Positions 29,486 through 46,933 are shown, counted from the stretch's first letter. The stretch: DNA of 64,000 bases from an uncultured Granulosicoccaceae bacterium (GCA_964574535.1 CAZNOB010000002.1:28109-92108), one strand, 5' to 3'. Numbers and translations: made by a program. Notes: generated by a model not told the origin, from the letters alone.

Positions 29486-29575
29486 ACCAAGTGATTGGCT
29501 GTGCCACTAACCTGGAATGTTATTTCTCCCTTTGAACTTTTTACACTATGTGTTTTTACCAGTGGAATCCCTTTT

Positions 29576-31768
29576 ATGATTGAACGGGATTTGGTTTTTA
29601 TTGGCGGTGGGCATACTCATGCACTAGCGCTTCGAACGTTGGCCATGAGGCCAATAAAAAATACTAGAATCACACTGATCTCTGAGCAGTCACTTACTCC
29701 GTACTCCGGTATGTTGCCAGGCTATGTAGCCGGCCATTACAGCATGCTGGAAACTCATATTGATCTGAATCGTTTATGTCAGTGGGCCGGTGTGCGCTGG
29801 ATAAACGGCACGGTCACCGGGCTTAAACCGGATCAAAAAATCATTGATGTTGTCGTTGGCAAAGAGTCCGATGAGCAGGGAAGTCTGCAGATCAGCTATG
29901 ACACACTAAGCATAGATACCGGGTCTACTCCCGATCTTTCTGTGCCCGGGGCAGAGCAATTTGCAGTCGGGGTTAAGCCTGTCAGTCATTTTAATTATGC
30001 ATGGCAGTCTTTATTAAATGCCTCAGTGGTAGAACAAGAGCAACAATGGGGAGTGATTGGTGCAGGTGCGGGTGGTGTGGAGCTGGTGCTGGGGATGGCT
30101 CATCGCCTTCGAGAAAAGAAAAATCTGCGTTTTCATCTGGCATTTTCGAGTGAGCGCGTGTTACCCGGCTACCCGGAAAAGTTGGTGGTTACTGTTGAGC
30201 GGCGGTTGGCTGAATTTAATATTCAAACCCATTCTGGATTTAGGGTGGCGCGGGTAACTGCTGATGGATTGCACTCAGAAACGGGTGTTCATCTGGCTCT
30301 GGATAAAAGTATCTGGTGCACGGGGGCCAGTGCGGCTGCCTGGCCTGCAGACTGTGGGCTTGCAGTGAGTGAGCGTGGGTTTATCGCCGTAAACGAATTG
30401 CTGCAAAGCACCAGTCATCACGATATCTATGCAGTGGGTGACTGCTCAGACATGATTGATGATCCGCGACCTAAAGCAGGCGTCTATGCAGTGAGGCAAG
30501 CCCCTTTTTTGGTTGATAATTTACGTGCTGCTCTGACTGGCTCAAAGACTAAGCCGTTGCGACTCCAAAGCGATTTTCTATCCCTGTTATCGTTGGGTGA
30601 CAGATCTGCCGTGGGTTGTCGAAGTGGATGGGTAGCGAGTGGCGCATGGGTATGGAAACTAAAAGACGATATCGATACCAGATTTATGCGCAAGCTTAAT
30701 GATCCTGGACCCAAGCTTGCGATGGCGGTTGAAGCTGCTGAAGATTCACCCATGCATTGCGCTGGCTGTGGCAGTAAATTGGGGCCTGATTTATTGCAGG
30801 GTAATTTGGCAAAGCTGAGCAGCTATACTCGAGACGAAATCACACCGGCGCTGGGGAATGCAGAAGACGCCAGTTTATGGCGGGTGACACCGGGTGCCTC
30901 AGCCGTACAAAGTATCGACGGATTTCGAAGCTTCACAGATGATCTATGGCGCTTTGGAAAAATATGCGTTAACCACTCGTTGAGTGATCTCTACGCCATG
31001 GGTGCCACACCTATCAGTGCTCAAGTGTGGGTTAATCTTTCGTTTTCACATCCGCGCTTACAAAAACGTGATCACCTTTTGTTAATGTCTGGCGTAGCAG
31101 ACGCTCTGGCAGAGCAAGAGGCCACACTGGCTGGTGGGCACAGTACTGAAGGGGCAGAGACTCATGTGGCCATTGTAGCCAATGGAGAAATACACGACGA
31201 TAAAGTATGGCGAAAAAACACCCCCGCCGAAGGTGATGTTCTGGTACTGACTAAAGCGCTGGGTACAGGCGTGATACTGGCTGCGGATATGCAGGCTAAT
31301 GCACCAGCCAAAGCCGTGGAAGCAGCATTTAAGATGATGCTGCAGTCCAGTCGCGAAATAGCCCGGACTCTGCGAGAACTGAGCCCTTCGGCTGTTACCG
31401 ATGTCACAGGATTCGGCTTATTGGGTCATTTGCTTGAAATGATGTCAGCACCACCGGCTGATAGCTCGGTCAAACTGGGCGCTCTGATTGAATGCGGTGC
31501 GGTACCGATGCTCGATGGTGCGATCGAACTTGCCGAAGCCGGCATTCAGTCAACACTCTATCCGCACTTGCAGCCATACACGATGAAGTGTGATATCCAT
31601 TCCGCAGTTGATTCCCGACAACTGGACTTGCTGCTGGATCCGCAAACCAGCGGCGGGTTGCTCATAGCTATCGATAGTTCGGGCGCAGAAACTCTCGTGA
31701 GTCGTCATGGGGCAAGTGTTATCGGTAAAGTTGTGGCTTCAGAGCGGGAGGTAACAATTACTGCGTAA
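29576..31768 (+). CDS. selD: pyridine nucleotide-disulfide oxidoreductase fused to selenide, water dikinase (SelD)
   Basis: The N-terminal half has VFIGGGHTHALAL, VIGAGAGGVELV and YAVGDCS (FAD/NAD(P) motifs). The C-terminal half has HCAGCGSKLGP (SelD Cys-Lys loop), SDLYAMGATP and TDVTGFGLLGH. The ATG at 29576 (MIERDLVFIGGG) is preferred to the ORF start at 29495. Confidence 0.85.
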   Translation: MIERDLVFIGGGHTHALALRTLAMRPIKNTRITLISEQSLTPYSGMLPGYVAGHYSMLETHIDLNRLCQWAGVRWINGTVTGLKPDQKIIDVVVGKESDEQGSLQISYDTLSIDTGSTPDLSVPGAEQFAVGVKPVSHFNYAWQSLLNASVVEQEQQWGVIGAGAGGVELVLGMAHRLREKKNLRFHLAFSSERVLPGYPEKLVVTVERRLAEFNIQTHSGFRVARVTADGLHSETGVHLALDKSIWCTGASAAAWPADCGLAVSERGFIAVNELLQSTSHHDIYAVGDCSDMIDDPRPKAGVYAVRQAPFLVDNLRAALTGSKTKPLRLQSDFLSLLSLGDRSAVGCRSGWVASGAWVWKLKDDIDTRFMRKLNDPGPKLAMAVEAAEDSPMHCAGCGSKLGPDLLQGNLAKLSSYTRDEITPALGNAEDASLWRVTPGASAVQSIDGFRSFTDDLWRFGKICVNHSLSDLYAMGATPISAQVWVNLSFSHPRLQKRDHLLLMSGVADALAEQEATLAGGHSTEGAETHVAIVANGEIHDDKVWRKNTPAEGDVLVLTKALGTGVILAADMQANAPAKAVEAAFKMMLQSSREIARTLRELSPSAVTDVTGFGLLGHLLEMMSAPPADSSVKLGALIECGAVPMLDGAIELAEAGIQSTLYPHLQPYTMKCDIHSAVDSRQLDLLLDPQTSGGLLIAIDSSGAETLVSRHGASVIGKVVASEREVTITA

Positions 31769-31996: not shown

Positions 31997-32785
31997 ATGA
32001 AATCTCGATCTCAAATCTCTGAATACTGTTTTCTGGCCGGTACCGGACGTAGCGGGACGACCGTGTTGCGAAATTCTTTTGGCTTGCACCAGGAGATCTA
32101 CTATAACGGAAAAGAAAATAATGTCGTGCAGGATGTCATTGACGTGGCGAGGCACAATTTCGTTTCGCCTTCCCGACAGTTTGCTTTAGTCGTTGATAAG
32201 GACACATACTGCACCGCGTTTCGAGATCTTTTGATCAGAATACTTTGGCCCAATCCCGAATTCGGATCGCGCCCGGTCAGGATGGCGGCGATCAATCCGT
32301 CCGGCGAAACCATGGAGTTTCTGCTGGAGATTTTTCCAAATGCTAAAGTGATTGGGCTGGTACGGGATGGTATTGATGTTGTACTTTCCCGCCAGAGGCA
32401 CCGTTCTTTCAAGCGTTTCACCTTCGAGTCGCATTGTCAGACATGGGTTCGGACTCAAGGGGTGGTCGAATGGGGTGAATTGAATCCTAATAATTTTCGA
32501 TTGTTCAGGTACGATTCGTTGTCTGACCGCAAGACACTTTCGACTACCTTTGCCGAATTGTTTGGATGGATGGGGCTTTCGCAGAACGATGCAGCGGTCG
32601 AACATGTGTTCGAAAAGCGGTATCACCCCACTGAGCTGGAAAAATCTCAAGCTGATTCTAACGACTCATCAACAGCTGAATCCAAACGCGCTCTATGGCA
32701 ACTTTGGAGCGAAGAGGAAAGAGAGCTTTTCCGTTCGATCTGCGGACCGTTCATGAAGCAAATGGGATTCGAAATGCCCTTTTAA
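31997..32785 (+). CDS. sulfotransferase (PAPS-dependent; Sulfotransfer_3-like)
   Basis: 262 aa. The 5'-PSB loop is LAGTGRSGTTVL. The 3'-PB-like motif is GLVRDGIDVVLS. Confidence 0.75.
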   Translation: MKSRSQISEYCFLAGTGRSGTTVLRNSFGLHQEIYYNGKENNVVQDVIDVARHNFVSPSRQFALVVDKDTYCTAFRDLLIRILWPNPEFGSRPVRMAAINPSGETMEFLLEIFPNAKVIGLVRDGIDVVLSRQRHRSFKRFTFESHCQTWVRTQGVVEWGELNPNNFRLFRYDSLSDRKTLSTTFAELFGWMGLSQNDAAVEHVFEKRYHPTELEKSQADSNDSSTAESKRALWQLWSEEERELFRSICGPFMKQMGFEMPF

Positions 32786-32918
32786 TTTCGAAGAGGCTGT
32801 GTTTGCGTTTGCAGTTGACTACCCGGCAGTGCGAGCTCAACATTTCTGACGAATTTTGCGTAGACATCAACCAGATCGGATTCCCTTCCCTGCCTCCTGC
32901 AAGCTAACTTTCGGTATT

Positions 32919-35456
32919 TTAAATCGCGGTGTGAATTTCGATTGCTACCCCTGCGCACGAAATTGATTCTGCTGTTGGTGAGCAAATTGCCATGAACACA
33001 ATGGAATCAGCGTTTTCCAGTGTGCTTGCATCGAGCCAATGATTAAATTTTTCCCGGGGTTTCAAAGTGAATCTCCGAGTACGGAGTGACTTCCCACAAG
33101 CATCGTACAGATCGATTACGATCACAACCCCATTGTTTAGTTTTGAAGGGTTCCCTGCAATTGCGGACCAGATAATTCCTCGAGTATGTACATTTGCTCG
33201 CAAATCAATGTGCCACTTTGGCTGATCTGTCGGGGCAATGGTTGTTGGATGCAAGTTGCACGCAATGTGGCCATCTCGATCCACTTCTCTACACCATTTG
33301 TTTGCCTGCAGGATTTTTCTGCTTGCAAAAAAAACTGAAGTATCCACCTTGTTCGATGTTTGCCCGTCACTTGTTAAGCGAGGGGGATCGGGTTGTGACT
33401 GTGCCAGCTGGCTAAAGAGCAATGAGAGATGGCGGCCATGCATTAGTGGAGATTCACTTGCCCGATAAGCAGTCGAGCAGTAACCGGCAATTCTAATACA
33501 ACTCCCAACTTCATCAAGTATGTATGATTGAAAACTATTCGGCTTGCCGAAGGTTTCCTGCCAGTCAACCTTAACCACTCTTTCCGCAGTATTGATCCCA
33601 TTGAGCCACGCCAGTTTAGCCGTTTCGAAATCCCCAACAGACCATGAAATGACGCCTCTGCGAAAGTCAGCTTCTATGCTCTTCGTAGCAATTGTTGGGT
33701 GGAACAGGAGCGGGTCAATTTTACTACAGCGCAGATAGTAGTCACGCGCAGTGTCGAGTTGTCCAATTCTTTGTTCCATTCGCCCAAGCAGGAATAAAAG
33801 AGAAATTGCCCAACGTATCTCGTGCGGTTCATCACCGTATTCTGATAGCCAGGAAGTAACGGATTTCTTAAAACTTCTGGTTTCTGCGGCTGCGACATCC
33901 TTTTCTAAAAATTGATAACCAAGAACGCATAAGGCTGCCCCGACATCCACAGAGTGCGCATTCAATGAAATAATTTGTTCACACGCTCGGGAAACATCAG
34001 AGGGGTTATTCGGTCGAGCGTATTTGTACACCAGGTTTTGAGCAATCCAGGGATTGCTATAGGATTTTTCAAAGTCAGTAGCGATGCTATTGCTGTTTGG
34101 GAACCGCCGATCAATGTAGCCTTGTCCGTCGTGAGCAAGCGGGTCTTTAATTGCTGTAGCGAGTAACCATTCACTTATCGGTGCTTGTTCCTGCTCGGCG
34201 TCAAAAGGCACCAATCTACGCTGGTCTTTCTGCCACTTACCCTCATTTTTTGAGCGTGTAGCAGTCTGTGCAAACGTTCGGTCAATGGCGTACCTGACCA
34301 GAAGTTGTTCCTTTAGGCTCCTCCAATCATAAACATGAAAATGATGAGGGTTAGGATCAATGCCTGTGTCGTCACTCCAGTCGTGTGGAACGCTTACTAT
34401 TATGCGTCCACCTGGTAAAAGAATGTCCCAACATGCCTGCAGAAAGGCGAGGGGATCTGCAATGTGTTCCAGCGTCTCGAAACATACTATCGCATTCACT
34501 CCAAGCTTTTTTATGTTGGACAGGCCTTCTGGTAATTCGGTTTCTACAAATGTCAGATCGGGAGAGACAAACGCTGCTTTGCAATAGTCAATAGCTCGCT
34601 TGCTCTGATCCAGTCCGACGATTGTTCTGGCGTCAGTGCATGATTTCAACAGCCAACTACCGTAACCAAGTCCGCACGCCGCATCGACAACGACATCACC
34701 GCTCTTAATAAACTGTCGCGCCCAGTGATAACGTATCAGATGCGCGTCAGATCTTGCGCCGGTCTCGCGTCCCATATCCATGTGCAAGCCACGGTTTTCC
34801 AGCAACCAATCTGATGAGTAGCTCTGCATGACATTCTCTGAAATTTTCTGTCCCAGAAAAACAATGTCTTGCGTTGGCTCTCCCATCTTTTGGTATTGAT
34901 TGTGATCGAAATAGCGAGGGTGTCGTCGGAAACCATTGTCGATTATTTGTTCTTCCCACCATTCACGGTTTTTAACCGTCAGGTGCCATTTGGCATCGCG
35001 ATCAACACGAGTTGCAATTCTCAGGTACAGGTTGTTACGTGTCACACGCCAAAGCTCGGCAATACACTGACACACATCTTCCTCTGCCAGATGTTCCAGA
35101 CAATCTGTTGATATAACCGTATCGAAGGAGTTGTCGCCGAAGGGTAACTGGCGTGCATCTCCAATGTGAAACTTGCCAGGGATTTTTAAGTTACAGGAAT
35201 CAACGGCAACTTTCGAGACATCAGCCCCGTGAGCATCTACGCCGAGTTCCAAAAGGGCGCGGACCATACTCCCCATTCCGGCGCCAACATCCAAATAGCG
35301 CCCAAATCCACACGACTTAACAATCTCTCGGGCCAGCTTATCGGGCTCGTCAATACTTGAAGCGCCCGCACGATCGGGCAAAAGCCAATAGCCGTCATAA
35401 AGCTCGGCATAGTTAACTTCATTTGTACTAAAGGGAGGCCTGGGAGAGGTATTCAA
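32919..35456 (-). CDS. multidomain protein: two class I SAM-methyltransferase domains, a TPR-like helical region and a C-terminal beta-rich region
   Basis: 845 aa. MT domain 1 has YLDVGAGMGSMVRAL / FDTVISTDCLEHL. MT domain 2 has VVDAACGLGYGSWLL / IVCFETLEHI / LLPGGRIIVSVP. The helical segment reads LGRMEQRIGQLDTARDYYLRCSKIDP. The last ~200 aa are unassigned. Confidence 0.75.
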   Translation of the reverse strand: MNTSPRPPFSTNEVNYAELYDGYWLLPDRAGASSIDEPDKLAREIVKSCGFGRYLDVGAGMGSMVRALLELGVDAHGADVSKVAVDSCNLKIPGKFHIGDARQLPFGDNSFDTVISTDCLEHLAEEDVCQCIAELWRVTRNNLYLRIATRVDRDAKWHLTVKNREWWEEQIIDNGFRRHPRYFDHNQYQKMGEPTQDIVFLGQKISENVMQSYSSDWLLENRGLHMDMGRETGARSDAHLIRYHWARQFIKSGDVVVDAACGLGYGSWLLKSCTDARTIVGLDQSKRAIDYCKAAFVSPDLTFVETELPEGLSNIKKLGVNAIVCFETLEHIADPLAFLQACWDILLPGGRIIVSVPHDWSDDTGIDPNPHHFHVYDWRSLKEQLLVRYAIDRTFAQTATRSKNEGKWQKDQRRLVPFDAEQEQAPISEWLLATAIKDPLAHDGQGYIDRRFPNSNSIATDFEKSYSNPWIAQNLVYKYARPNNPSDVSRACEQIISLNAHSVDVGAALCVLGYQFLEKDVAAAETRSFKKSVTSWLSEYGDEPHEIRWAISLLFLLGRMEQRIGQLDTARDYYLRCSKIDPLLFHPTIATKSIEADFRRGVISWSVGDFETAKLAWLNGINTAERVVKVDWQETFGKPNSFQSYILDEVGSCIRIAGYCSTAYRASESPLMHGRHLSLLFSQLAQSQPDPPRLTSDGQTSNKVDTSVFFASRKILQANKWCREVDRDGHIACNLHPTTIAPTDQPKWHIDLRANVHTRGIIWSAIAGNPSKLNNGVVIVIDLYDACGKSLRTRRFTLKPREKFNHWLDASTLENADSIVFMAICSPTAESISCAGVAIEIHTAI

Positions 35457-35458
35457 AA

Positions 35459-36463
35459 CTAAAGGCCCTCCCGAAATGCAAAATATTCATGGAGTGTGGA
35501 AATCCAGTCTGCATTGCGCGCATAGCCCTGGCTCTTAATTTCATCACCCGCCAAATCCTGCAAAACCTGACCGTCTTTACGTGTCAGATATCGTGTCCAA
35601 TCGCCTGCTACACCTTTTCGGATATGAGCGTTCGGTATGGAATCGCCCGGAGATCGCCCCCCGGACATAATTTCAAAGCGAGTGTTTTCAATGCACTGTA
35701 GAATATTTTCTTTACTGATTGGTATGCCTAGAAAATCGATCAACCTTGCCAGTTCGGGTTCTGGAGTTAACAGTAAATTCTCATACCTGATTGTGCAGTC
35801 CGAAAACTGTCTTTCAAGTTGGGACATTGCTACCCATGCATTGACCCAGCTTTCCAGTTCCCCCGTCCTGAACGCTGTATCCAAAGATGATGTTGTCCTT
35901 TTCTCTGATATTGTTCGCAAGCGGCTGATCTCGAAATCACTTGGGCCTTGCTCGGATGTTATGCGTTCGTGCCAGTGATACATCCCGCTTACCGCGACAT
36001 CACGACAGTCTCTCATCAGGAAAAATATTTTTGCCTGAGGAAATGAACGTCTATAGGCATTGTACGTATCCTTTTCTGATCCCATATAAGGGGTTACCTT
36101 GTCGACGATCACTTTGGCATTCGTTCGCGATTTGACAAAGTTCAGCAGCATCATGACAAGTTCCTGTGTCAGTTCAACCCGCAATGCTTCCTGATCAGTC
36201 AATCCCCGGGGTTTGGACATGTGTTGTGCGAGCTTGTATGCATACCTGTCGGCAGTTAACCGAAAGTCACTTCGACCATGCTGATCGAATGCTGCCATTT
36301 CGCTGTTACCAAACAACCGTAGTTCGGTACAGTCAACATCCGGCAGTGCATTCAGCATCGCCTTCATCCATGTTGTTCCAGACCGAGGAGTAGAAAACAG
36401 GGCTACGTGCACGATGTCACCCTGGCATGCGTATCCGGTTGTGGTACTCGTTGTTCTCATCAT
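35459..36463 (-). CDS. sulfotransferase (Sulfotransfer_1-like)
   Basis: 334 aa. The 5'-PSB loop is FSTPRSGTTWM and the 3'-PB motif is FFLMRDCRDVAVS. The C-terminal RKGVAGDWTRYLT resembles the RKGxxGDW motif of cytosolic-type sulfotransferases. Confidence 0.85.
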   Translation of the reverse strand: MMRTTSTTTGYACQGDIVHVALFSTPRSGTTWMKAMLNALPDVDCTELRLFGNSEMAAFDQHGRSDFRLTADRYAYKLAQHMSKPRGLTDQEALRVELTQELVMMLLNFVKSRTNAKVIVDKVTPYMGSEKDTYNAYRRSFPQAKIFFLMRDCRDVAVSGMYHWHERITSEQGPSDFEISRLRTISEKRTTSSLDTAFRTGELESWVNAWVAMSQLERQFSDCTIRYENLLLTPEPELARLIDFLGIPISKENILQCIENTRFEIMSGGRSPGDSIPNAHIRKGVAGDWTRYLTRKDGQVLQDLAGDEIKSQGYARNADWISTLHEYFAFREGL

Positions 36464-36688
36464 TCTATTTGTTATGTAGATTTTGGATCAGAGACTGCTG
36501 GGTCAATATCTTCATGTATGCGGGCTGCGAATTATGGTGCTATTGGTATCAGTGCAGGAAGTACAGTTTTCCCAACACTGTTTTTTTGGCCGAATTTGAA
36601 ACCAGCGTTTGCGTCTAACGATGTGCAATTCATATAATTCATATGTCAAGAGCATTCCAGTTTGATTGGTTTATTTATGCTTTACAGT

Positions 36689-37771
36689 TCATTTGTTGTT
36701 TATCGCTTCTTCGTCACACAGAACATTTAATAATGCATCTATCGATTCAGTTCGCTCCTGAATCACCCCTCCTTCTATAAGTTCTGTCTCTGGTTGGTTT
36801 CTGGCATCGCTATTGCCAAAATGTTTTATGAACAAATGCATCACATGGCGAACGCCCATATCTGTCACACTTCTGCAATCCGGGGCGAAATACTGACCAC
36901 GACTAAAAGGGCTTGTGATAATTTCAAAGGATGGGAAGTAGACACATTGATCGATGTGTTGTGTGGCTTCTTCGGCCGCTACCCGTAAAACCGCTTTTGA
37001 CCAGGTTGATGACACAAAGACATGACGATCTTCTTTTGTGGCGTTGAGCGGGACCGGGGACACGGTCAAAACAAATTTAACGTCAGGGTTTTTTTCACGG
37101 ATAAAATTTAGCGCAAACAGCAAATCCTCTACTGTTTCTTGCTGATTAAAATTATAAAACTCAACGGTTTCAGGATCATAAATCCCACCAGCTATTCCTG
37201 GAGCGACCGGGTAAACAGCGCCACTGTGCTTATCGATCCAACACTCTGTTAGCCCAAGCGTAAAAACAAATACTTTCATTTGCTCGATTGCTTTTCTGAT
37301 TGACGCGAAATGGTAGGTCTGATCGGCTTGTAATTCCGCCTCTGAAACAAAGCCACCTGGTTGAATCTGCGGCCGGAATGGATCTACAACCGATTTTCCA
37401 TCTTTGCCCGCCCAGGAAATTGTTATTGGCTCAAAATTCTCGTATGCCCTTTGTAACAGTTGTTTCAGCTGTCTGGCTGTATAGATGTTTCCGTAGCGGG
37501 CTGCAAACATACCGTAGTTAAAGAGGGTTTGCGTGCTTTTGGGGAACATCGGGTGGGCTGTTTCGGTGATGAAATGGTTGAACCCCGATTGGCTGAGGTG
37601 GTGTGCCACATGCTGAGCAAAACAGGAACCGGCTGTTACCACCGCATCCTCCGGGCATATTTTGAATGGAGGCTCTGCGACCGGGTCAAACGTCTCCGGC
37701 CGGTTGATAGCCGCTTCTTTTTTCCAAAACTGATAGTCGGGTAAACCGCTATAGGGGCTTCGTATGCTCAT
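36689..37771 (-). CDS. GSCFA-family protein
   Basis: 360 aa containing the eponymous motif in VVTAGSCFAQHVAHHL. The start overlaps the stop of the upstream gene (ATGA). Confidence 0.8.
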   Translation of the reverse strand: MSIRSPYSGLPDYQFWKKEAAINRPETFDPVAEPPFKICPEDAVVTAGSCFAQHVAHHLSQSGFNHFITETAHPMFPKSTQTLFNYGMFAARYGNIYTARQLKQLLQRAYENFEPITISWAGKDGKSVVDPFRPQIQPGGFVSEAELQADQTYHFASIRKAIEQMKVFVFTLGLTECWIDKHSGAVYPVAPGIAGGIYDPETVEFYNFNQQETVEDLLFALNFIREKNPDVKFVLTVSPVPLNATKEDRHVFVSSTWSKAVLRVAAEEATQHIDQCVYFPSFEIITSPFSRGQYFAPDCRSVTDMGVRHVMHLFIKHFGNSDARNQPETELIEGGVIQERTESIDALLNVLCDEEAINNK

Positions 37772-38517
37772 AATAGCGTTTTGATTTGATTTAACACCAA
37801 GTGACCATAATCCTGGTTGGCATGTAGAGGGTCACCCAACCAAAATGATGGTTTTAGACAGCGATCGTCATCTATTGACTCAAACGGGGTGGGAAGAAAC
37901 GGTAAGCCGATCGAATCACAGAACGTTTCAATGATTTCGATGTGAATATCGTAGCATGCTAAACGTATTTCTTTCGGAGCTATTGTGCTCGTCGGTTGAT
38001 TGGCATAAAGATGCAGGCTATTTTTTAGTTGATTCACATCGGCAATGGGTGGAGGCGGGCTAAGGAAAAAGCAATTATTTTCTTTAAATTGATTGTGTAA
38101 CGATTCAATGAGTGTAAAGGTGTTTCTCGTTTCAAATACATCCTGCATTTGATATTTCAACATTGATCTTGGAACAAAATGTCTGGCCGATCGATTCGGG
38201 GTCAAGCCAAGTTCTTTGTCTCCCACTGAGTATGGAATAAGATATTCGGTATATGAAAAAATGTTGAACTCATTTCCAAAGAGTGACAGGCACACAGCAT
38301 CGATCTCTTCCGAATCCATCTTAAAAGGCACACTGAAATGAGTATACTTTTCTTTGTCTTTTTGCAAAAAATCTGTAGTTTTAAAATGGACACTTTCGAC
38401 ATTCCAATCGTCTGGCTTCTCCTCTGCTGCTTGTGTAACAGTATGTGAGTGAGACATTCCGATAACGAGCAGATTTTTCTGTTGGCCGTTTCTCTGTGCA
38501 TTTAGTTCGATTTGCAT
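37768..38517 (-). CDS. hypothetical protein, possibly SGNH/GDSL-like fold
   Basis: About 249 aa from the ATG at 38517 (MQIELNAQ...). LLVIGMSHSH is block-I-like, SLFGNEFN is block-III-like, and C-terminal GDPLHANQDYGHLV is DxxH block-V-like. The resemblance is by eye only. The ORF opens at 38631. Confidence 0.4.
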   Translation of the reverse strand: MQIELNAQRNGQQKNLLVIGMSHSHTVTQAAEEKPDDWNVESVHFKTTDFLQKDKEKYTHFSVPFKMDSEEIDAVCLSLFGNEFNIFSYTEYLIPYSVGDKELGLTPNRSARHFVPRSMLKYQMQDVFETRNTFTLIESLHNQFKENNCFFLSPPPPIADVNQLKNSLHLYANQPTSTIAPKEIRLACYDIHIEIIETFCDSIGLPFLPTPFESIDDDRCLKPSFWLGDPLHANQDYGHLVLNQIKTLL

Positions 38518-38813
38518 ATGCAGCCGTGCTTTTAGTTGTGTTGCCCAATGAAAGAATCGTACGCTAATCGATCGGAAGGGCGTTGGCACTTTCCCATTAT
38601 ATTCTGCCGTTTTTGCCAAATGTTCTGGCACATTGTGGAACGCCAGGGCACGTGCTTAGATAGCCCGGTAACTATGTACAACTCTAGTGAAGCTATCGGT
38701 ATTGTTTCCAGGCTCTATCCAGATATCGTCCGTTAGATTTACGTCATGTTGCCATGGGGCGAGCCCATCGATTAACTGCCGTAATTCGGATTCCTTATCT
38801 GTAGTCAATGGCT

Positions 38814-39866
38814 CTACCTTTTTTGTAAAACAATAACTGTTTGTCGCGCGTGACCGAGCGGGATTACTTCTTCAATTTCCATGAACCGGCCCCAGACATT
38901 TTCAATGTGGCTTATGGAATGGAACGCCATTCCTCGGTAAGGCCCAACCTGGGTGTGTCGAAAACCGGTATGTCCCTCTGGCATGGGGTTTTCAAGCAAT
39001 TCGTAAAGATTTGGTATCGCTTTCTCAAAGCGTAAAAGCGAATCTGGATCTTCTGTTGTGGCTTGTTGCATCGCTGCCCAAGTGGATTCGGTATGAGCCG
39101 TGAGCAAAGCAATTCCACCTGGCTTCAAAACGCGCCTGATTTCTGCAAGCCAGCCGGTTTCAAATATATCGCAATGGGTAAATACAGAATAAGCTAAGAC
39201 AGCATCGAAATAATTGTCTTCCATTGGCAAGCTGGCGAGTGCTGGAAGGCTAATGGGCAATACTTGTTTTGGCATAAATTCGGATAGCCATCTGATGTGG
39301 CGATGGTTTAGCTCGGTTGCCCAGACTTCTGTCGCATCACTCTGACAAGCAAAATGCCTTAATACTCGTCCACTCGCTGCGCCCAGCTCAAGAGTTTTTT
39401 GCAACTCCACCCCATACTTTTCAGCCAGGACAGTTGCGACATAATAGTCTCGATATCCGGAGAGCCAGTAATATTCGTTGTGTTCGTCGGTACCATAACC
39501 CTCGCGGTCACGACTGCACGGTATTGGTATTGAATCTTTGGATATTGCGTGCTTGAGGCGCTCTATTTCCAGATGCGAAATTTCTGATGGTATGCGCCCG
39601 GAGTTGATCAGTCTAAAGTCTGCAGGGTCCCATTGACTTAGAGGAATGGCATTGACGAATGGCTCTCTATCAAGAGCATTTATAGAAAGATCGTCTTCCC
39701 ACCGTAATGGCCGGGTTGGCGCACTTTTAGAGTTACCCGGTTGCGTTTCCTTGATGTTTAGCACTTGATTTTGATGCCTCAAAGTCATTTTATATGGCCT
39801 CAATTTTTGTCCATAGGCATAAGTATAGTCAGGATAATCGGGATTTTTTCTGAGGCTTCTTTGCAC
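38814..39866 (-). CDS. class I SAM-dependent methyltransferase with unassigned ~150-aa N-terminal region
   Basis: 350 aa. Motif I is TLELGAASGRVLRHFA, followed by FDAVLAYSVFTH and LKPGGIALLTAH. Confidence 0.75.
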   Translation of the reverse strand: MQRSLRKNPDYPDYTYAYGQKLRPYKMTLRHQNQVLNIKETQPGNSKSAPTRPLRWEDDLSINALDREPFVNAIPLSQWDPADFRLINSGRIPSEISHLEIERLKHAISKDSIPIPCSRDREGYGTDEHNEYYWLSGYRDYYVATVLAEKYGVELQKTLELGAASGRVLRHFACQSDATEVWATELNHRHIRWLSEFMPKQVLPISLPALASLPMEDNYFDAVLAYSVFTHCDIFETGWLAEIRRVLKPGGIALLTAHTESTWAAMQQATTEDPDSLLRFEKAIPNLYELLENPMPEGHTGFRHTQVGPYRGMAFHSISHIENVWGRFMEIEEVIPLGHARQTVIVLQKR

Positions 39867-39894
39867 TCTTGAATGATATTGAGAGATCGAGCGA

Positions 39895-40605
39895 TTATCT
39901 TTTAAGAGGCAAGCTCAGGCCTCTGTGAGCAAGAATCCCATTGTAGATGATGTATTCGTCAGCCAGGATTTCACGTAACTGAGGTTCATATCTTTCGAGG
40001 GCCTCCTGCATGGCTTGTCGGTTCCTGTTTACATTGTTACGAAGCGCCGGTTGGCTTTTCCCTCCAAGTGCTTGTAATACAATTTGAAAGTCTTCATCGA
40101 AATTTTCTGTAATCCCTACAAAGTCAAATTTCTCAATAGCGTTGTACAGGGCTTCCTCAGATGTTGCGGAGTCAAAGGGTTTTAGATACTCCAGCGTTTT
40201 ATTCATATCGCCGGGGGATTGCATGTAGTCCTCGAACGTCGGAAATTGATTCTTAAATCCTTCCGGGTCCGTGTGCGCTTCGGAAATGCAGTAGAAATAG
40301 TCAGAAAGCGTCCGCTGGACAGGGTCCCTGAGAAACGTGATGAGTGCTACTCGTTCGCGGACCGGAGAGATAACATCAGCGATATCACGATACCGGTAGT
40401 GTCCCGAGATCATCCTCTCTTCACGGTCGAATAGTTGCGGTAAAAGTTTGATAAAACCGTCTCTGAGGTCAGCATACCCACCTTCATAGGGACCAAAGAC
40501 AAATGACGGTTTATGAGGGATCTGGTTGAAAATCTCGCCGAGTGTGTCACGCAGAGTAGTGCCAGCGGTTTTGGGTATGTGGATATTAATCAAGTGTTGT
40601 TTCAT
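39895..40605 (-). CDS. sulfotransferase (Sulfotransfer_2-like)
   Basis: From the ATG at 40605 the sequence is MKQHLINIHIPKTAGTTLRDTL. HIPKTAGT resembles the 5'-PSB loop of family-2 sulfotransferases. About 236 aa. The longer ORF to 40698 is unlikely. Confidence 0.65.
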   Translation of the reverse strand: MKQHLINIHIPKTAGTTLRDTLGEIFNQIPHKPSFVFGPYEGGYADLRDGFIKLLPQLFDREERMISGHYRYRDIADVISPVRERVALITFLRDPVQRTLSDYFYCISEAHTDPEGFKNQFPTFEDYMQSPGDMNKTLEYLKPFDSATSEEALYNAIEKFDFVGITENFDEDFQIVLQALGGKSQPALRNNVNRNRQAMQEALERYEPQLREILADEYIIYNGILAHRGLSLPLKR

Positions 40606-40844: not shown

Positions 40845-41870
40845 ATGAATAAAATACTTGTTCTCGGTGGTGCGGGTTACATTGGCAGCCACACTTGCAA
40901 ACGTCTTCGTGCTTCGGGATTCGACCCTGTCACTTATGACAATCTATCTGAAGGCTACGCAGAATTCGTTAAATGGGGCGAGTTGATTGCCGGGGACATT
41001 CGTTGCAGAAGTGAACTAGATGCTGCACTTGCGCGCGTACGTCCCGCTGCCGTCATTCACTTTGCCGCCTATGCCTATGTGGGAGAGTCTGTCACCAACC
41101 CTGGTAAGTATTATGAAAACAATACGCTGGGTTCTCTCAATGTGGCTCAGGCACTTCGCGATGCAGGCAATATACCGCTAATATTTTCATCGACTTGTGC
41201 AACCTACGGCATCCCTGACGACGGGCTCATTAGCGAAGATAACGCGGTCCAGCCGATCAATCCGTATGGTAGAAGCAAGCTGATGGTAGAGCAGATTCTG
41301 CAGGATTTTTCGTCCGCCCATGGATTAAGAAGTGCGTGCCTGAGATATTTCAACGCAGCTGGAGCAGACCCTGATAGAGAGATTGGTGAAGCACATCGTG
41401 AAGAAACCCACGTGATACCACGAGCAATACTGGCGGGTCTTGGTCGTATCGATAACTTTGCGGTATTTGGAGACGATTACAGTACGAAAGATGGGTCCGC
41501 TGTACGCGACTATGTCCATGTAAATGATCTCGCAGATGCGCACGTCGCCGCTTGTCGGTATTTGGTGGATAAAAATGGCCAAAGCGACGTATTTAATGTT
41601 GGCGTTGGGCGAGGGTATTCGGTGCTGGAAATAATTAAAGCGGTAGAAGAGGAAATCGGAAACCGGGTCCCTTACACAGTGAAATCTCGTCGGCCCGGAG
41701 ATCCTCCGGAGCTGGTGGCCGCCACCGATAAGACACAAAAAATACTTGGTTTCCAGGCGCAGTATTCGGACCTGCCTGGTATTGTTCAAACTGCAGCCGC
41801 CTGGCATCGCATGAATTGGATGCCAGCCAAAGTGAGCCGCACCGGAAATCGAGTACCCAGTTTTGCTTAA
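40845..41870 (+). CDS. galE: UDP-glucose 4-epimerase
   Basis: 341 aa. Contains ILVLGGAGYIGSH (Rossmann motif), STCATYG and YGRSK (SDR catalytic YxxxK). An AAGGGA RBS precedes the ATG. Confidence 0.9.
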   Translation: MNKILVLGGAGYIGSHTCKRLRASGFDPVTYDNLSEGYAEFVKWGELIAGDIRCRSELDAALARVRPAAVIHFAAYAYVGESVTNPGKYYENNTLGSLNVAQALRDAGNIPLIFSSTCATYGIPDDGLISEDNAVQPINPYGRSKLMVEQILQDFSSAHGLRSACLRYFNAAGADPDREIGEAHREETHVIPRAILAGLGRIDNFAVFGDDYSTKDGSAVRDYVHVNDLADAHVAACRYLVDKNGQSDVFNVGVGRGYSVLEIIKAVEEEIGNRVPYTVKSRRPGDPPELVAATDKTQKILGFQAQYSDLPGIVQTAAAWHRMNWMPAKVSRTGNRVPSFA

Positions 41871-44643
41871 GCTCTCTGAAGTTTATGACTGGTTTTTTAA
41901 TCTGGATTTTGTCCGAAGTCAATATCCGATGCTTAAAGAAAAGTCTGACACAGCGATAATCAGGGATATACTCGATCCGGATAATACCTCCCCGTACGAT
42001 CCTAACCTCCTTTTTGACGGTAGTTTCTATAAGCGTAATCTCGGAAGCGGGACTTCGCTAAGAAATCCGGTTCTTCACTTTTTGACAGAAGGTGCGAATC
42101 AGGGACTCTCATCAAATCTCTGCTTTGATCCCCTGTATTATCTGACACAAGTACCCGGCCCGCCGATGTCGGTCATGGCCGCTTTGAAAGATGCGTTGTC
42201 CAGGTTGGACGGGAAGGGCACGTTGCCAGCGTTCCACCCCTTCATTAATGAGGAATACATTCGGCTTCAGCACAATCCCGGTGAGCCATCAGATTTTTAC
42301 TTACGGCTTTTTCGAGGTAACTACTTCATCAGCAAATCTGCACCTCTGGTGGACATCGCCTATTTTGGCCACAGCGTGCAGAAAGAGTTTGATAGTTTTG
42401 CAGAAGCATTCGGCCATTATTGGCAGGCTGAAGAGGATCTATCAACCCATGTTCTTTTTGAGCTGGATTACTACCGAAGCCAGCTTCCGGACGAAGAACG
42501 GGTTCGCCGCGCGGTTTACCATTACCTGGTCAGTGATCACCCTCTATCGCCACAACCATTGTTTGATCCGGGCTTTTACCTGGCTTCAACCCGGAAATTG
42601 TTGGGTGAAAGCCCAAGGCGTCCGTTTGAACATTTTCTCACCAAAGGACAAGCCGCGGGTTTGACTCCCTCGCCACTATTCGACGTCGATTTTTATCGAC
42701 GGCAAACGCATTGCGGACCCGATGCGTTACAGCACTATCTGGAAGGTGGCCACCGTAGTACCGAGGCACACCCGATGGTCAGGTTCGCTGAGGCAAGATT
42801 GCTATCAAACGCCGCACTAGACCCGAATCGTTCAACCTTGTCTCGGTTGGCGGAATCGTCTCCCGAGTTGCCGCTAAGTGTGACACCGGAATTTGACCCG
42901 TCTTACTGGAAGCCGAAGTCTGGAAAGGCACTTCCTGCGGATGCTTCTGAAATCGAGCTAAGGGACCACTATCTGAAACAGGGTTACCCGGCCGGGCTTT
43001 GTCCCAATTGGCTTCTATCAGCAAGCTACATTGCAAAACAGGCTGAGCTTGAAGATAAAAAAAACGTTAACTCCATTCAGCACTATTTTAGTCAGGGGTG
43101 GCATCGGCGCGTAGGTGTAATGATCGCGTTGCATTCTTTTCAGGACACACCGGGAAATCGGACCTGGCTGGAAATTTTGCGGGGACAAGTTGATGTCACT
43201 GACCTCGAAGTGATCGTTGTTGCACAAAGTCCCGGACCTTTATCTAAAGAGTTTCGTGATTGTGCTCATGTCTGGCAAGTGCCTAAGCCAACGGAAAATA
43301 AGTCTCATAGCGAACAACTGGAAATCTCGATCACTCGACTGAATGAAACGCTGCAAGCCAATCCCCCTGCTGTGGTGTTTGTTGAAGGCGAGTCAGATTG
43401 GCTACTTGCTATGAATCTCAAAGTGTTCGACGCACCTAAAGTTCTGTTTGGCGGCCCAAAGCTTCTGCAAGCTGAACACGAAGATGTGGAGCAAATAAAC
43501 ACCGCGGCGAACCTTGTCTGGAGTCTAGCCGGACCTGTGAGCGATCACCTCAAGCGCTTATTCGATACCAGTAACATTCAGGTACGAGAAGGCTATTACC
43601 CTGGAGCGAATGCACGGGCGATAACACGAAGCCGATTGGGAGTCGGGTCAGATGCCATTCTGGTCGTCGGTAGTGGCCCGCTGGATATCGCGAACGGTGT
43701 TGATCTGTTCGGCGCTATTGCAGCCAGGTACTACACAGCATCGGGAACGAAGCCGGATTTGTGCTTTGCCTGGCAGGGTTCGGGTCCTACACACCCAAAC
43801 ACCCCGGCGTTCTATGCCAGGTATGCCGTGGACATAGCGGCAGGCCCCGGTAAATTGCACATTCTGACAGACATTGATACGCGAAGCGTGCTGGCGGCTG
43901 CAGATATTTTTCTGCAAACCAGACGGCACCACTCCGATTTTGATGCAAGCGATGACGCCAGGGCCATGGGTGTGCCGGTATTGCGTATGAGTGACACGCT
44001 TGACAGCGACACGCAGACATTTGCACCTTATGATCTTGATGACGCTGTCTCAGCGCTGGCATTCCTGGTCGAGAATCTGAAGCCGCCGAGTATCTTTCGC
44101 ACGGGAGCACTGGCGGATACTTCAAACAATTCAGATCTCTCAAAATTTGTGCGAAGTTTTAATGAATGCACGCAGTCCCTGGGTGTGGATGTAAAGTTTG
44201 TCGAGCCAGCATCTACTACGCAATGTCAAAACCTGCTTGTTCTCACAAGTGAGAAGCGTTTAATCAAAATTAGAGAGTTCGAGCCGACGAAGCGATATTT
44301 TGGTCTGCCTGATAGTGTACGTATTTCACAAGCACAGCTGGAGCATATGGATCTGCCTGACGGGTTCAAAAACCTGTTAGTACAAGAGAGCGAAAGCGAC
44401 CTTGTCTTTTGCGCGGTCGAGACCGCAGACCTCTCTGGTCTGGCGGATAGGTTCAATCGGTTGATCGGGTTGCTGGAGGCAGGCGATTTGGATCTCGATG
44501 TGGCTGGCAAGATGAGCGCAGTCTGCGACCGAATAGCGGTGGACAGTCCGGAACTGAGTACAGCGATGGAGGCAATTAATCCTCGTAAAGCTGCAGCATT
44601 GACTTATACCAACGGAGATATCCCGTGCTCAGAAGCCTGTTAA
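41863..44643 (+). CDS. large repeat protein with degenerate GT4-like C-terminal half
   Basis: 926 aa. Residues ~12-416 are ~10 divergent tandem repeats (FD..FY...HY/HF....G....P). Residues ~417-730 are paralogous to the next gene's GT4 domain, but the EX7E region is replaced (DFDASDDARAMGVPVL). A TTG start overlaps the galE stop by 8 nt. An alternative ATG lies at 41929. Confidence 0.6.
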   Translation: MLKLSEVYDWFFNLDFVRSQYPMLKEKSDTAIIRDILDPDNTSPYDPNLLFDGSFYKRNLGSGTSLRNPVLHFLTEGANQGLSSNLCFDPLYYLTQVPGPPMSVMAALKDALSRLDGKGTLPAFHPFINEEYIRLQHNPGEPSDFYLRLFRGNYFISKSAPLVDIAYFGHSVQKEFDSFAEAFGHYWQAEEDLSTHVLFELDYYRSQLPDEERVRRAVYHYLVSDHPLSPQPLFDPGFYLASTRKLLGESPRRPFEHFLTKGQAAGLTPSPLFDVDFYRRQTHCGPDALQHYLEGGHRSTEAHPMVRFAEARLLSNAALDPNRSTLSRLAESSPELPLSVTPEFDPSYWKPKSGKALPADASEIELRDHYLKQGYPAGLCPNWLLSASYIAKQAELEDKKNVNSIQHYFSQGWHRRVGVMIALHSFQDTPGNRTWLEILRGQVDVTDLEVIVVAQSPGPLSKEFRDCAHVWQVPKPTENKSHSEQLEISITRLNETLQANPPAVVFVEGESDWLLAMNLKVFDAPKVLFGGPKLLQAEHEDVEQINTAANLVWSLAGPVSDHLKRLFDTSNIQVREGYYPGANARAITRSRLGVGSDAILVVGSGPLDIANGVDLFGAIAARYYTASGTKPDLCFAWQGSGPTHPNTPAFYARYAVDIAAGPGKLHILTDIDTRSVLAAADIFLQTRRHHSDFDASDDARAMGVPVLRMSDTLDSDTQTFAPYDLDDAVSALAFLVENLKPPSIFRTGALADTSNNSDLSKFVRSFNECTQSLGVDVKFVEPASTTQCQNLLVLTSEKRLIKIREFEPTKRYFGLPDSVRISQAQLEHMDLPDGFKNLLVQESESDLVFCAVETADLSGLADRFNRLIGLLEAGDLDLDVAGKMSAVCDRIAVDSPELSTAMEAINPRKAAALTYTNGDIPCSEAC

Positions 44644-46580
44644 GTCAGCCTCAGCCCTCGCACATGCAAGAAATCGACAGTGATGAAGTCATAACCGAGA
44701 CACTTGCTGTTTCCAATGCAGTCGATAGGCCGTACTACCTTTCAAATAATTCAGATGTAGCACTGGCGAAGATTGATCCCTTATTGCATTTTTATCTCCA
44801 TGGGGCCGCCGAAGGACGCCTGCCCAACCCCTGGTTTACAGAAGGCTATATTCGAAGCAGCCTGCATCAGACATCATTCTACGAACAGTCCATTCCGAAC
44901 GCCTACGTTGACTCCGGCTTGTATGACAAGCCGAGATTGATTTTTGTCAGTCACGATGCCTCCCGTACCGGTGCACCGGCTATTATTCTGCAGTTGCTTG
45001 AGCTGTTCAGTCAGGGTGGTGCTTTTGAATGTTTTTCGATTCTGGATGATGGCGGTGAGCGTTTGTCCGAGTTTCAGGCTTTGTCCCATACCCATGTTAT
45101 GTCCCGGCATCGATATGACACAACTTTTTCAGAAGAGGAAGCTACACTGGAGTTAGCGGCTCTGTTCGATCCCAACGGATTGTTTAAAGATAATGCCCCA
45201 GTTTGCGCATTGGTGAATTCTGCTGAGTCCATTCGTATCGCGCGAATTCTGGCGAAGACCGGCGTTCCCATAATCTCTTTGATACATGAAATTGCCGCTT
45301 ATTATCCATCCAGAATTTTCACAGAGTTCGGCAACCTGTCGGAGAAAGTTGTATTTCCGTCCGAGTTCGTCAAGGACGCCGCAGAGTGTTTTTCAGACAT
45401 TCAGAGCGACAAAATCCACGTACGAGGACAGGGCCTTCTGACCGACGGTTTCGGTTCAGCGGAGCGCGATAACTGCCGCAAGCTGCTTCGAGAAGAGTTG
45501 GGAATCGAGCAGGACGCCGTTATTGTTCTGAATGTGGGTACTATGGATCTTCGAAAAGGTGGTGATTTGTTTGTCGAGACAGCAAAAATCTGCCTGCAGC
45601 GGCTCCCTGAAGGGTCACCGTTGTACTTTGTGTGGTATGGAAAATCAGATGTAAACTTGAACTATCCCCATGAGATCGTTCAGCAGTACGGGCTCGAGGA
45701 GCATATCCGATTTATGCCGGCTACGCCGGAGATAGAGCAGGTGTTTATGGGGGGGGATATTTTCCTGTTGACTGCCCGGGCGGATCCGTTTCCCTGTGTC
45801 ATTCACGAAGCAATGGCTTGCGGACTTCCAGTTGTGGCTTTCCGAAATGGTGGTGGTGCACCGGAACTCATTGGTGATGATTGCGGGCAGGTAGTAGAGA
45901 TGATGAACCTGAAGGCCATGTCTGACGCTATCTTCATTTATATGAATGATCCGGAGATTCGCCGAACTCACGCCAGAAACGCCATCGCAAAAATTGCCCG
46001 TAGCTGGGATTATCGAAGCTATCAGAATGATCTCTACACACTAATGCAAAGCTGTGTTTCTGCGCCGAAATCAGGCTGGCCAGAACTGCTGCAACCGTGG
46101 TCACCGGAGAAACTGATCATCATGCATGGGTCGCAGAGCGATTTGCAGACCTTTGAAAAACTGATTGACGGGAGTGCAGGTTCACTGGATATTGCATTGA
46201 TAAATGGTCGTTTTGACGTTGATACAGAATCTATTGCTGCTCGTCTCCGACAACTTGAGCATCGTACCCGCCACTTCCAGCCGGAAGAGGATACACCTGA
46301 GGATCGGGCGGCGGTCGTGGTAAAATTGTTGAAACAGCCGAATATTCGGGAAGCTGTACTGGTTGATGTGATTCAGTACATCCTTCCTTCTCAGCTTAAA
46401 ACCCTTGATTATCCGGTCCACGTTGTGCAAACGGAAATGTCTCCTAACGACGCAAATCTGCATCTCGTCCTGCCTTATATCGCAAGCTTGACACTGAAAG
46501 ATGGAAAAAAGATCAACCTGACGTTTGAAGAGAAAAACCAAAAAACCAAATTATCACCGAAGATTCATACTATTGCTTAA
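44625..46580 (+). CDS. glycosyltransferase family 4 (GT-B, group 1) with N-terminal repeat unit
   Basis: 651 aa. Contains RLIFVSHDASRTGAP, VLNVGTMDLRKGGDLF and GDIFLLTARADPFPCVIHEAMACGLPVVAFRNGGGAPELI (EX7E-type motif). The N-terminus carries one copy of the repeat seen in the previous gene (DRPYYLSNNSDVALAKIDPLLHFYLHGAAEGRLPNPWF). An alternative ATG lies at 44664. Confidence 0.85.
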   Translation: MLRSLLSQPQPSHMQEIDSDEVITETLAVSNAVDRPYYLSNNSDVALAKIDPLLHFYLHGAAEGRLPNPWFTEGYIRSSLHQTSFYEQSIPNAYVDSGLYDKPRLIFVSHDASRTGAPAIILQLLELFSQGGAFECFSILDDGGERLSEFQALSHTHVMSRHRYDTTFSEEEATLELAALFDPNGLFKDNAPVCALVNSAESIRIARILAKTGVPIISLIHEIAAYYPSRIFTEFGNLSEKVVFPSEFVKDAAECFSDIQSDKIHVRGQGLLTDGFGSAERDNCRKLLREELGIEQDAVIVLNVGTMDLRKGGDLFVETAKICLQRLPEGSPLYFVWYGKSDVNLNYPHEIVQQYGLEEHIRFMPATPEIEQVFMGGDIFLLTARADPFPCVIHEAMACGLPVVAFRNGGGAPELIGDDCGQVVEMMNLKAMSDAIFIYMNDPEIRRTHARNAIAKIARSWDYRSYQNDLYTLMQSCVSAPKSGWPELLQPWSPEKLIIMHGSQSDLQTFEKLIDGSAGSLDIALINGRFDVDTESIAARLRQLEHRTRHFQPEEDTPEDRAAVVVKLLKQPNIREAVLVDVIQYILPSQLKTLDYPVHVVQTEMSPNDANLHLVLPYIASLTLKDGKKINLTFEEKNQKTKLSPKIHTIA

Positions 46581-46755
46581 GAAGGTTTTCGTGTGTCCCC
46601 AGGGTTCAGGCAAATCACCTTTGGCAATTGTCCTCTGAATTCTCTGGTCGGTGTTGTAGCGTACACCGCTTGAACTCAAGCATTGTCGTTCGGGGATGAG
46701 CTTATCGATGAGTACGATCCCACCAAGTACTTATCGAACCTCTGTCTAAGTTGAT

Positions 46756-46933
46756 CTGGTGGGCTGTGTGGAAAGTCAGTAACACGGCTCGAAGCCACAG
46801 CGCCATAGCGGCGTTGCTATCATTGATAAAGCCTGATTCGACACAGTCCCTGCTATACCTGCATGTTTTCGCCTTGCTCTGACGACTGTGGGTGTGAAAA
46901 GTTAGTTACTGAACTTCCCACACAGCCCACCAG
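46756..46933. repeat. MITE-like element bounded by 28/29-bp imperfect inverted repeats
   Basis: The left arm is CTGGTGGGCTGTGTGGAAAGTCAGTAAC (46756-46783). The reverse complement of the right arm (46905-46933) is CTGGTGGGCTGTGTGGGAAGTTCAGTAAC. The first 16 nt are identical, followed by one substitution and one indel. A third, direct copy of the inner motif (GTGTGAAAAGTTAGTTAC) lies at ~46892-46909. There is no ORF inside and no clear target-site duplication. Confidence 0.6.

Follow-up and report, generated by a model that had tools for sequence, protein, structure and literature searches.

Three dissimilar sulfotransferases and a recurrent exporter-less gene cassette in a putative glycan-tailoring island of an uncultured Granulosicoccaceae bacterium

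To our knowledge, few sulfated bacterial glycans have been characterized, and acceptors have been identified for hardly any bacterial carbohydrate sulfotransferases. Here we analyze a 64,000-nucleotide stretch of DNA (the window) from an uncultured Granulosicoccaceae bacterium (GCA_964574535.1 CAZNOB010000002.1:28109-92108), in which a block of ∼15 kb between selD and pilZ-bacA (31.8–47.1 kb; the island) encodes three sulfotransferases, denoted ST-A, ST-B, and ST-C, alongside methyltransferases and glycosyltransferases. Among described systems, the xss (synechan) cluster of Synechocystis sp. PCC 6803 (sll5042–sll5060) contains two sulfotransferases of distinct subfamilies, and the sulfate count of synechan roughly equals the sulfotransferase count (PMC8205485). 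The island resembles xss as a bacterial glycan locus combining glycosyltransferases with sulfotransferases of distinct subfamilies. However, xss includes Wzx, Wzy, a polysaccharide co-polymerase (PCP), eight glycosyltransferases, and dedicated regulators (PMC8205485), whereas the island is without a flippase, polymerase, exporter, or membrane protein and instead carries several methyltransferases, one clearly intact glycosyltransferase, and a degenerate paralog of the latter. The capsule locus of Vibrio sp. KMM 8419 contains three sulfotransferase genes (PMC11641403), and the capsule loci of Cobetia marina KMM 1449 contain sulfotransferases together with their own genes for the sulfate donor 3′-phosphoadenosine 5′-phosphosulfate (PAPS; PMC11766843). 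These are likewise cases of sulfotransferases in surface-glycan loci of marine Pseudomonadota; unlike the island, they span 70–80 genes, are of the ABC-transporter type, and include dedicated cysDNC/cysQ PAPS genes as well as lipid-carrier genes, all of which are absent from the island. The Nod factor of Rhizobium sp. NGR234 has a 2-O-methylfucose that receives sulfate at C3 from NoeE and an acetyl group at C4 from NolL (PMC5080398), a comparable situation in that soluble cytoplasmic enzymes place methyl, sulfate, and acyl groups on one oligosaccharide sugar. The island differs in being without nodABC, and although NoeE (NF052394) is the sole NCBIfam match of ST-B, its score of 22.3 bits against a cut-off of 500 indicates that ST-B is not a NoeE ortholog.

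Comparison with relatives indicates that the whole 15-kb block is an insertion, and a horizontally acquired, modular glycan-tailoring island of a marine bacterium is probably its best explanation as a whole. More than 18 congeneric genomes have selD and bacA on one contig at a spacing of 0.6–3.5 kb, compared with 16 kb here, and in the five relatives whose selD–bacA gaps were inspected, pilZ was the sole open reading frame (ORF) matching the window. Orthologs of ST-A, ST-B, ST-C, and GT926 (a 926-aa glycosyltransferase-like protein) were not found in the 24 searched genomes of the genus; GT926 was detected in one of 401 genomes of the class, and a single-protein pattern scan of genome contigs for ST-B returned no relatives. 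Misassembly of the island was rejected. In a marine metagenome, contigs of two samples span both borders at ∼99 % identity, the depth of these contigs matches that of the flanks, and a more distant, related strain from the runs of another study also carries the island, which together argue that the assembly is sound. The island of this related strain is without exactly 36788–38731, a segment holding two genes described below (GSCFA and SGNH-like), with the joint at 36787>38732. Separately, a low-depth contig from the run with this strain may connect 31802 with 46396, leaving an almost empty site; the shorter side of this joint covers only 30 letters.

All three sulfotransferase genes are intact ORFs, at 31997..32785 (plus strand; ST-A, 262 aa), 35459..36463 (minus strand; ST-B, 334 aa), and 39895..40605 (minus strand; ST-C, 236 aa). 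The motifs from which a sequence-only reading had first proposed them are all present in the translations, namely GTGRSGTT and VRDGIDVVLS in ST-A, TPRSGTTW, RDCRDVAVS, and RKGVAGDW in ST-B, and HIPKTAGTT in ST-C. Pfam assigned the proteins to three different families, with every score exceeding the curated gathering cut-off: ST-A to Sulfotransfer_3 (48.7 bits, E 1.4e-12, cut-off 27), ST-B to Sulfotransfer_1 (87.7 bits, E 1e-24, cut-off 22; Sulfotransfer_3 also matched at 79 bits), and ST-C to Sulfotransfer_2 (36.8 bits, E 6e-9, cut-off 22). The 5′-phosphosulfate loop, (P/G)(K/R)(S/T)GT(T/S), takes the form GRSGTT in ST-A, PRSGTTW in ST-B, and PKTAGTT in ST-C. It is invariant or nearly so in the ST-B and ST-C family alignments, and every row of the ST-A alignment that covers the loop keeps GRSGTT (two rows are N-terminally truncated). 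The 3′-phosphate motif, an arginine and a serine following a beta-strand, is invariant in each family (R123/S131 in ST-A, R151/S159 in ST-B, and R93/S101 in ST-C). As the sequence-only reading had held, the three did not arise by recent duplication: homology between the ST-A and ST-B families shows only at the profile level (hhalign probability 99.3 % at 18 % identity; BLASTP E 2e-4 over 85 residues), and between ST-C and ST-B none shows even there (0.2 % probability). The same reading had described ST-A as lacking the RKGxxGDW tail; the literal motif is indeed missing, but a degenerate counterpart (the invariant K230, W234, and W237) aligns with it. The possibility that one of the proteins, for example the HIPKTAGT protein, lacks the PAPS-binding fold was not borne out. 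AlphaFold2 (AF2) models of ST-A (mean predicted local distance difference test score [pLDDT] 83.8) and ST-C (pLDDT 93.8) both adopt the sulfotransferase fold, the top 50 and top 40 Foldseek matches in the PDB, respectively, being all sulfotransferases, and the fold of ST-B is assigned by sequence match to more than 40 SULT and tyrosylprotein sulfotransferase (TPST) chains. ST-A, ST-B, and ST-C are thus dissimilar sulfotransferase-fold enzymes with PAPS-binding motifs, for which PAPS-dependent activity is predicted.

ST-C is the first gene of a minus-strand string in the order ST-C, MT350, SGNH-like, GSCFA, ST-B, and MT845, successive genes being spaced by 28, 182, −4, 225, and 2 nt, and this string diverges from a plus-strand operon of overlapping genes, GalE-GT926-GT651. 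The ATG at 40605 is taken as the correct start of ST-C, since its homologs are 232–240 aa long. A profile of 45 homologs matched heparan-sulfate 2-O- and 6-O-sulfotransferases (HS2ST and HS6ST) in the PDB, with an E-value of 3.8e-10 for HS2ST, and the best PDB folds for the model were HS2ST, HS6ST, and cytosolic SULTs (best entry, 4ndz). K12, H69, R93, and S101 are invariant in the family, corresponding to the PKT loop, a Gly-His pair, and RDPxxRxxS. The PKTxx loop, the GH (His) motif, and RDPxxRxxS all align with HS2ST (3f5f, 4ndz), the Gly-His pair falling on its HGH motif; unlike HS2ST, to which it is 16–18 % identical, ST-C is a soluble bacterial protein without a Golgi stem. Downstream of ST-C by 28 nt, MT350 (38814..39866, minus strand) encodes a 350-aa S-adenosylmethionine (SAM) methyltransferase assigned by Pfam.

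ST-B carries PRSGTTW, RDxRDVxxS, and RKGxxGDW, and its sequence matches in the PDB are cytosolic SULTs and the N terminus of TPST. The protein thus combines a TPST-like N terminus, with an aligned Glu47, and SULT-type C-terminal motifs; the 334-aa form is considered correct because a shorter call would lose the PAPS loop. MT845 (32919..35456, minus strand), which starts 2 nt past the ST-B stop codon, encodes 845 aa with two SAM methyltransferase domains identified by Pfam, a weak TPR-like stretch, and a C-terminal domain of no assigned family. Its first domain is nearest to the D-glucose O-methyltransferase 6uv6.

Loci reached through ST-B and ST-C homologs revealed a recurrent gene cassette, defined as an ST-C-type gene, a methyltransferase gene, and a GT926 ortholog immediately followed by a GT4-family glycosyltransferase of ∼640 aa, with no export genes. 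This cassette is present in the window and in seven other lineages at unrelated chromosomal sites, and its constant part is made up of the ST-C-type gene, the methyltransferase, usually a GalE-like epimerase, the GT926 ortholog, and the ∼640-aa GT4. An ST-C-type gene occurs in every cassette found, and orthologs of GT651, the GT4 of the island, directly follow the GT926 ortholog in all of them. The seven comprise a Pseudomonadota metagenome-assembled genome (MAG; L010/L011) with ST-C, a short ST-C-like gene, and ST-B; Logan contigs (L012–14), of which L012 carries an ST-C/methyltransferase fusion, ST-B, and ST-C; the cultured Roseicyclus mahoneyensis DSM 16097 (L034) and another Pseudomonadota MAG (L035), each with an ST-C/methyltransferase fusion; a locus cut by a contig end (L021), in which the two glycosyltransferases are fused and the part seen contains no methyltransferase; and the loci L113 and L114/115. 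The flanks differ each time, with glmUS, smpB, recR, amino-acid ABC transporter genes, and others, and no export genes were found in the flanks of any cassette. Methyltransferases homologous to MT350 occur in the L012 and L034 cassettes, and in three loci single proteins of ∼500–540 aa fuse an ST-C-type domain to a SAM methyltransferase domain (L034:10834-12405, L035:9947-11578, and L012:5509-7008). Such fusions constitute a Rosetta-stone link between sulfation and methylation, arguing that both domains act on the same substrate. ST-B orthologs (42 % identity) occur within three of the eight cassettes, each time beside an MT845 ortholog; in L010 and L012 the latter are 787–790 aa long. ST-B and MT845 are thus an optional add-on module of the cassette. 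The recurrence of the cassette, the ST-B/MT845 pairing, and the loss of the GSCFA and SGNH-like genes in the related strain together indicate a core cassette with two optional tailoring modules. The number of sulfotransferases per cassette ranges from one to three between lineages, which suggests that tailoring varies and that the product is not invariably triply sulfated.

This conservation bears on whether the island genes form a pathway. An accidental neighborhood appears improbable; in that case, genes with no common function would have gathered at the selD/pilZ spot, and the sulfotransferases would have two or three separate acceptors, such as a protein, a small metabolite, or an O-antigen whose synthesis is encoded elsewhere. 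Consistent with such a view, the spot is variable in the genus, being empty or, in one relative with a longer selD/pilZ gap (G014; L030:158-2850), occupied by three larger ORFs that are 5-oxoprolinase genes (pxpABC-like), this being the one longer gap whose ORFs were scanned while several other relatives have gaps of similar size. The island is also mosaic in GC content (0.41–0.50) and in gene content between strains, and sulfotransferase content differs between cassettes. However, eight lineages retain the ST-C, methyltransferase, and GT926/GT651 genes together, three retain the ST-B/MT845 pair, the fusions argue for a shared substrate, and the island genes abut or overlap. A different chemistry, in which a nonsulfate group such as phosphoramidate (as in the Campylobacter MeOPN pathway) is moved from a 3′-phospho-nucleotide donor and then methylated, would accommodate the consistent pairing, and even fusion, of sulfotransferase-like and methyltransferase genes. 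We regard it as highly improbable: neither Pfam nor NCBIfam identified donor-synthesis genes in the island, the genome contains an ordinary APS kinase (a 660-aa ORF on contig C193), and ST-C matches Sulfotransfer_2 above its curated cut-off as well as HS2ST, including the predicted catalytic histidine. The island product is instead likely a sulfated, O-methylated glycan. A glycan with more than one sulfate is plausible, since ST-B and ST-C lie in one string with methyltransferases, opposite the GalE and glycosyltransferase genes, and since their orthologs share a cassette in two other lineages; on balance, we favor action of ST-B and ST-C on one glycan.

ST-A differs from the other two sulfotransferases in its setting. 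Located at the island's left edge, it converges on MT845 and is encoded on the strand opposite the ST-B/ST-C string. A profile search of the PDB returned TPST1/2 as closest (E 9e-12) and also matched the CurM sulfotransferase domain, and the AF2 model superimposed on TPST with TM-scores of 0.67–0.71. Conserved residues are GRSGTT, E40, R123, S131, and K230. The GxxRSGTT loop of TPST1/2 (5wrj, 3ap1) aligns with ST-A, as does a glutamate of the GEE motif, the invariant E40 corresponding to the second Glu of this motif in TPST1. The second Glu of the GEE motif is the catalytic base of TPST. The bacterial analog of TPST is RaxST of Xanthomonas, and many bacterial Sulfotransfer_3 enzymes with a TPST-like fold use nonprotein acceptors. 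Unlike TPST1/2, to which it is 18–19 % identical, ST-A has no candidate Tyr-rich peptide to act on beside it, nothing convincing having been found among ORFs adjoining ST-A either as a RaxX-like small peptide gene or as a Tyr-rich substrate. Homologs of ST-A at 40–70 % identity are solitary genes beside housekeeping genes (neighbors included purC, nucleoside hydrolase and mrp genes, an ABC transporter, and 3-keto-disaccharide hydrolase genes), and no homolog was present in any other cassette. Because its relatives elsewhere are solitary, only adjacency links ST-A to the glycan.

The sequence-only reading had proposed that all three sulfotransferases act at three positions of one product, yielding a triply sulfated glycan. 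The idea of multiple sulfation survives for ST-B and ST-C, given their co-occurrence in cassettes, while its extension to ST-A was not supported and now seems unlikely. All three genes do belong to a single 15-kb insertion with no counterpart found in relatives, ST-A adjoins selD in the related island-carrying strain also, and other cassettes hold three sulfotransferase domains (L010, L012); set against this are the position of ST-A at the edge and on the other strand, its resemblance to TPST rather than to carbohydrate sulfotransferases, its absence from other cassettes, and its stand-alone relatives. Most likely, ST-A is a separate passenger at the island edge that would sulfate a different acceptor.

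To gauge the prevalence of multi-sulfotransferase loci, the Sulfotransfer_2 loop pattern of the ST-C alignment was used to select 79 loci in named genomes, each considered with 10 kb to either side; this seeding is biased toward sulfotransferase-bearing loci. At least three sulfotransferase ORFs were present in 36 of these seeded loci, 33 of which mix at least two of the three profiles; individual loci, chiefly from Bacteroidota, carry up to six sulfotransferases. Mixed sulfotransferase arrays are thus commonplace in genomes, and three dissimilar sulfotransferases are only moderately unusual. The rarity claimed for such a locus by the sequence-only reading therefore stands for characterized systems but does not extend to genomes. 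Within the survey, Bacteroidota (Saprospiraceae, Bacteroidales, and Flavobacteriaceae; L036–L112, e.g., L043, L070, and L082) display tandem arrays of four to six sulfotransferase genes in which Sulfotransfer_2-type and Sulfotransfer_1/3-type members alternate.

The plus-strand operon begins with a GalE-type UDP-hexose 4-epimerase (40845..41870), identified by Pfam (Epimerase) and by NCBIfam (TIGR01179 galE, 405 bits against a cut-off of 262). GT926 (41863..44643, plus strand) has ∼400 aa of N-terminal FD..FY repeats, a divergent GT-B region at ∼410–780, and a C-terminal extension. The protein had no sequence match in Pfam, NCBIfam, or the PDB, and its GT-B assignment derives from an Atlas search, which placed it in GT4 clusters (score 0.98; TM 0.59–0.65 by target), and from paralogy to GT651 (hhalign probability 99.9 %). 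GT651 (44625..46580, plus strand) is a 651-aa retaining-type GT4 with an N-terminal extension (Pfam Glycos_transf_1, 80 bits), nearest in the PDB to MshA, BshA, and WaaG. The second Glu of the EX7E motif is kept in GT651 but is not conserved in the GT926 family. An intact and a degenerate GT-B protein are also paired in GtfA-GtfB, the two-protein GT-B glycosyltransferases of Gram-positive serine-rich adhesins. The likeness, an intact GT4 gene beside a degenerate GT-B paralog, is by analogy only, and unlike GtfA-GtfB the island has no adhesin substrate gene nearby. Full-length relatives of GT926 (∼900–975 aa) number ∼20–25 among the 50 %-identity cluster representatives of a library of 1.84 billion proteins. 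The FD..FY repeats (41896–43110), covered by no Pfam model, recur 5–13 times in giant proteins of 1000–4000 aa (P0232–P0244), where they are fused to GT2, GT4, WbsX, RgpF, GT61, TOD1, or Stf0-type sulfotransferase domains, and so resemble a general accessory module of glycan-building enzymes. Between MT350 and ST-B on the minus strand are an SGNH/GDSL-hydrolase-like gene (37768..38631; ORF of 287 aa, probable start 38517) and a gene for a 360-aa GSCFA-family protein (36689..37771; PF08885, 164 bits), whose start the former overlaps by 4 nt. The SGNH-like protein had no Pfam match and was assigned through the Atlas, in which it fell into SGNH/GDSL clusters (feature score 0.95) with structural TM of 0.55–0.59 to GDSL families.

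Together these genes suggest a scheme in which GalE would supply a UDP-hexose epimer and GT651, probably with its degenerate, repeat-bearing paralog GT926, would build a glycan on an acceptor not encoded by the island; both the donor and the order of steps we infer. ST-C would move sulfate from PAPS to a sugar hydroxyl in an HS2ST-like manner, with Lys12 in the 5′-phosphosulfate loop, His69 probably acting as the base, and Arg93/Ser101 located at the 3′-phosphate site, and MT350 would O-methylate the glycan. The optional ST-B and MT845 would introduce a second sulfate and more methylation, and the optional SGNH-like/GSCFA pair may contribute acyl-ester chemistry. ST-A, in which the Glu matching the catalytic base of TPST is retained, would act outside this scheme, and PAPS would come from the housekeeping APS kinase. 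The core cassette would be fully soluble and self-contained. In accord with a soluble system, no island protein contains a hydrophobic 19-mer above 1.5 (Kyte-Doolittle), i.e., none has a transmembrane-grade segment. Pfam and NCBIfam gave no match in the island for a flippase, polymerase, co-polymerase, exporter, priming transferase, or PAPS genes, and KpsMT, a Wzm/Wzt transporter, and cysDNC/cysQ were not found in the island or its flanks.

Several points weigh against the view of a modular island whose ST-B and ST-C tailor one glycan while ST-A serves another acceptor. In this strain and the related one alike, ST-A is part of the insertion, adjoining selD in the latter too, and it may conceivably have a role in the same pathway. 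Assignment of the putative catalytic bases, His in ST-C and Glu in ST-A, comes from alignment with HS2ST and TPST and from the known catalysis of those enzymes, and catalytic death of GT926 is putative only. The island also offers no exporter, flippase, or priming transferase that would point to a fate of the product. Promoter and terminator scans performed no better than shuffles, so the operon structure is read from gene spacing and overlaps alone, and no RNA run was found that holds the locus.

Other features of the window and genome were also recorded. Gene order (leuS-lptE, UPF0149-pepP-ubiH, and dprA-fmt-rsmB-trkA) suggests that the bacterium is probably gammaproteobacterial. The gap at 46581–47125 contains, at the right border of the island, a dispersed repeat resembling a miniature inverted-repeat transposable element (MITE; 46756..46933, no strand), with 21-nt terminal inverted repeats that are 95 % complementary and ∼28 further copies scattered over the genome at 71–88 % identity; the bin containing this element showed ∼50-fold excess contig depth in three metagenome runs. 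The gene at 29495–31768 encodes a fusion of a pyridine-nucleotide-disulfide oxidoreductase with SelD and is kept in 23 of 24 genomes of the genus, and in several relatives the match to this fusion holds one or two in-frame stops (TGA, TAA, or TAG). The genome contains ∼8 sulfotransferase-like genes. Nearly every genome of the genus carries one to three more distant Sulfotransfer_2-like genes (ORFs of ∼320–365 aa), as do contigs C102 and C109 of this genome, indicating a core sulfotransferase repertoire separate from the island. A flagellin-glycosylation context was set aside, Pfam having given no flagellar gene among 37 scanned window ORFs, a scan that left out about seven ORFs of at least 120 aa, mostly between 5.8 and 23.8 kb.

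The cassette is an uncharacterized system, and its exporter-less composition and modular variation are of greater interest than the count of three sulfotransferases. One possible, though doubtful, interpretation is that it constitutes a new cytoplasmic glycosylation system of marine Pseudomonadota; its GT4/pseudo-glycosyltransferase pair would glycosylate a protein or synthesize a soluble oligosaccharide, with sulfation and methylation following, and would not contribute to a conventional capsule or O-antigen. The compact set of nine to ten genes is suited to heterologous expression, and the presence of the core cassette in the culturable R. mahoneyensis DSM 16097 makes the cassette product directly testable. 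The optional modules (ST-B/MT845 and the SGNH pair), together with variation between strains, illustrate how sulfation and methylation patterns diversify, which bears on marine surface chemistry, on recognition by phages and grazers, and on the enzymatic production of sulfated sugars.

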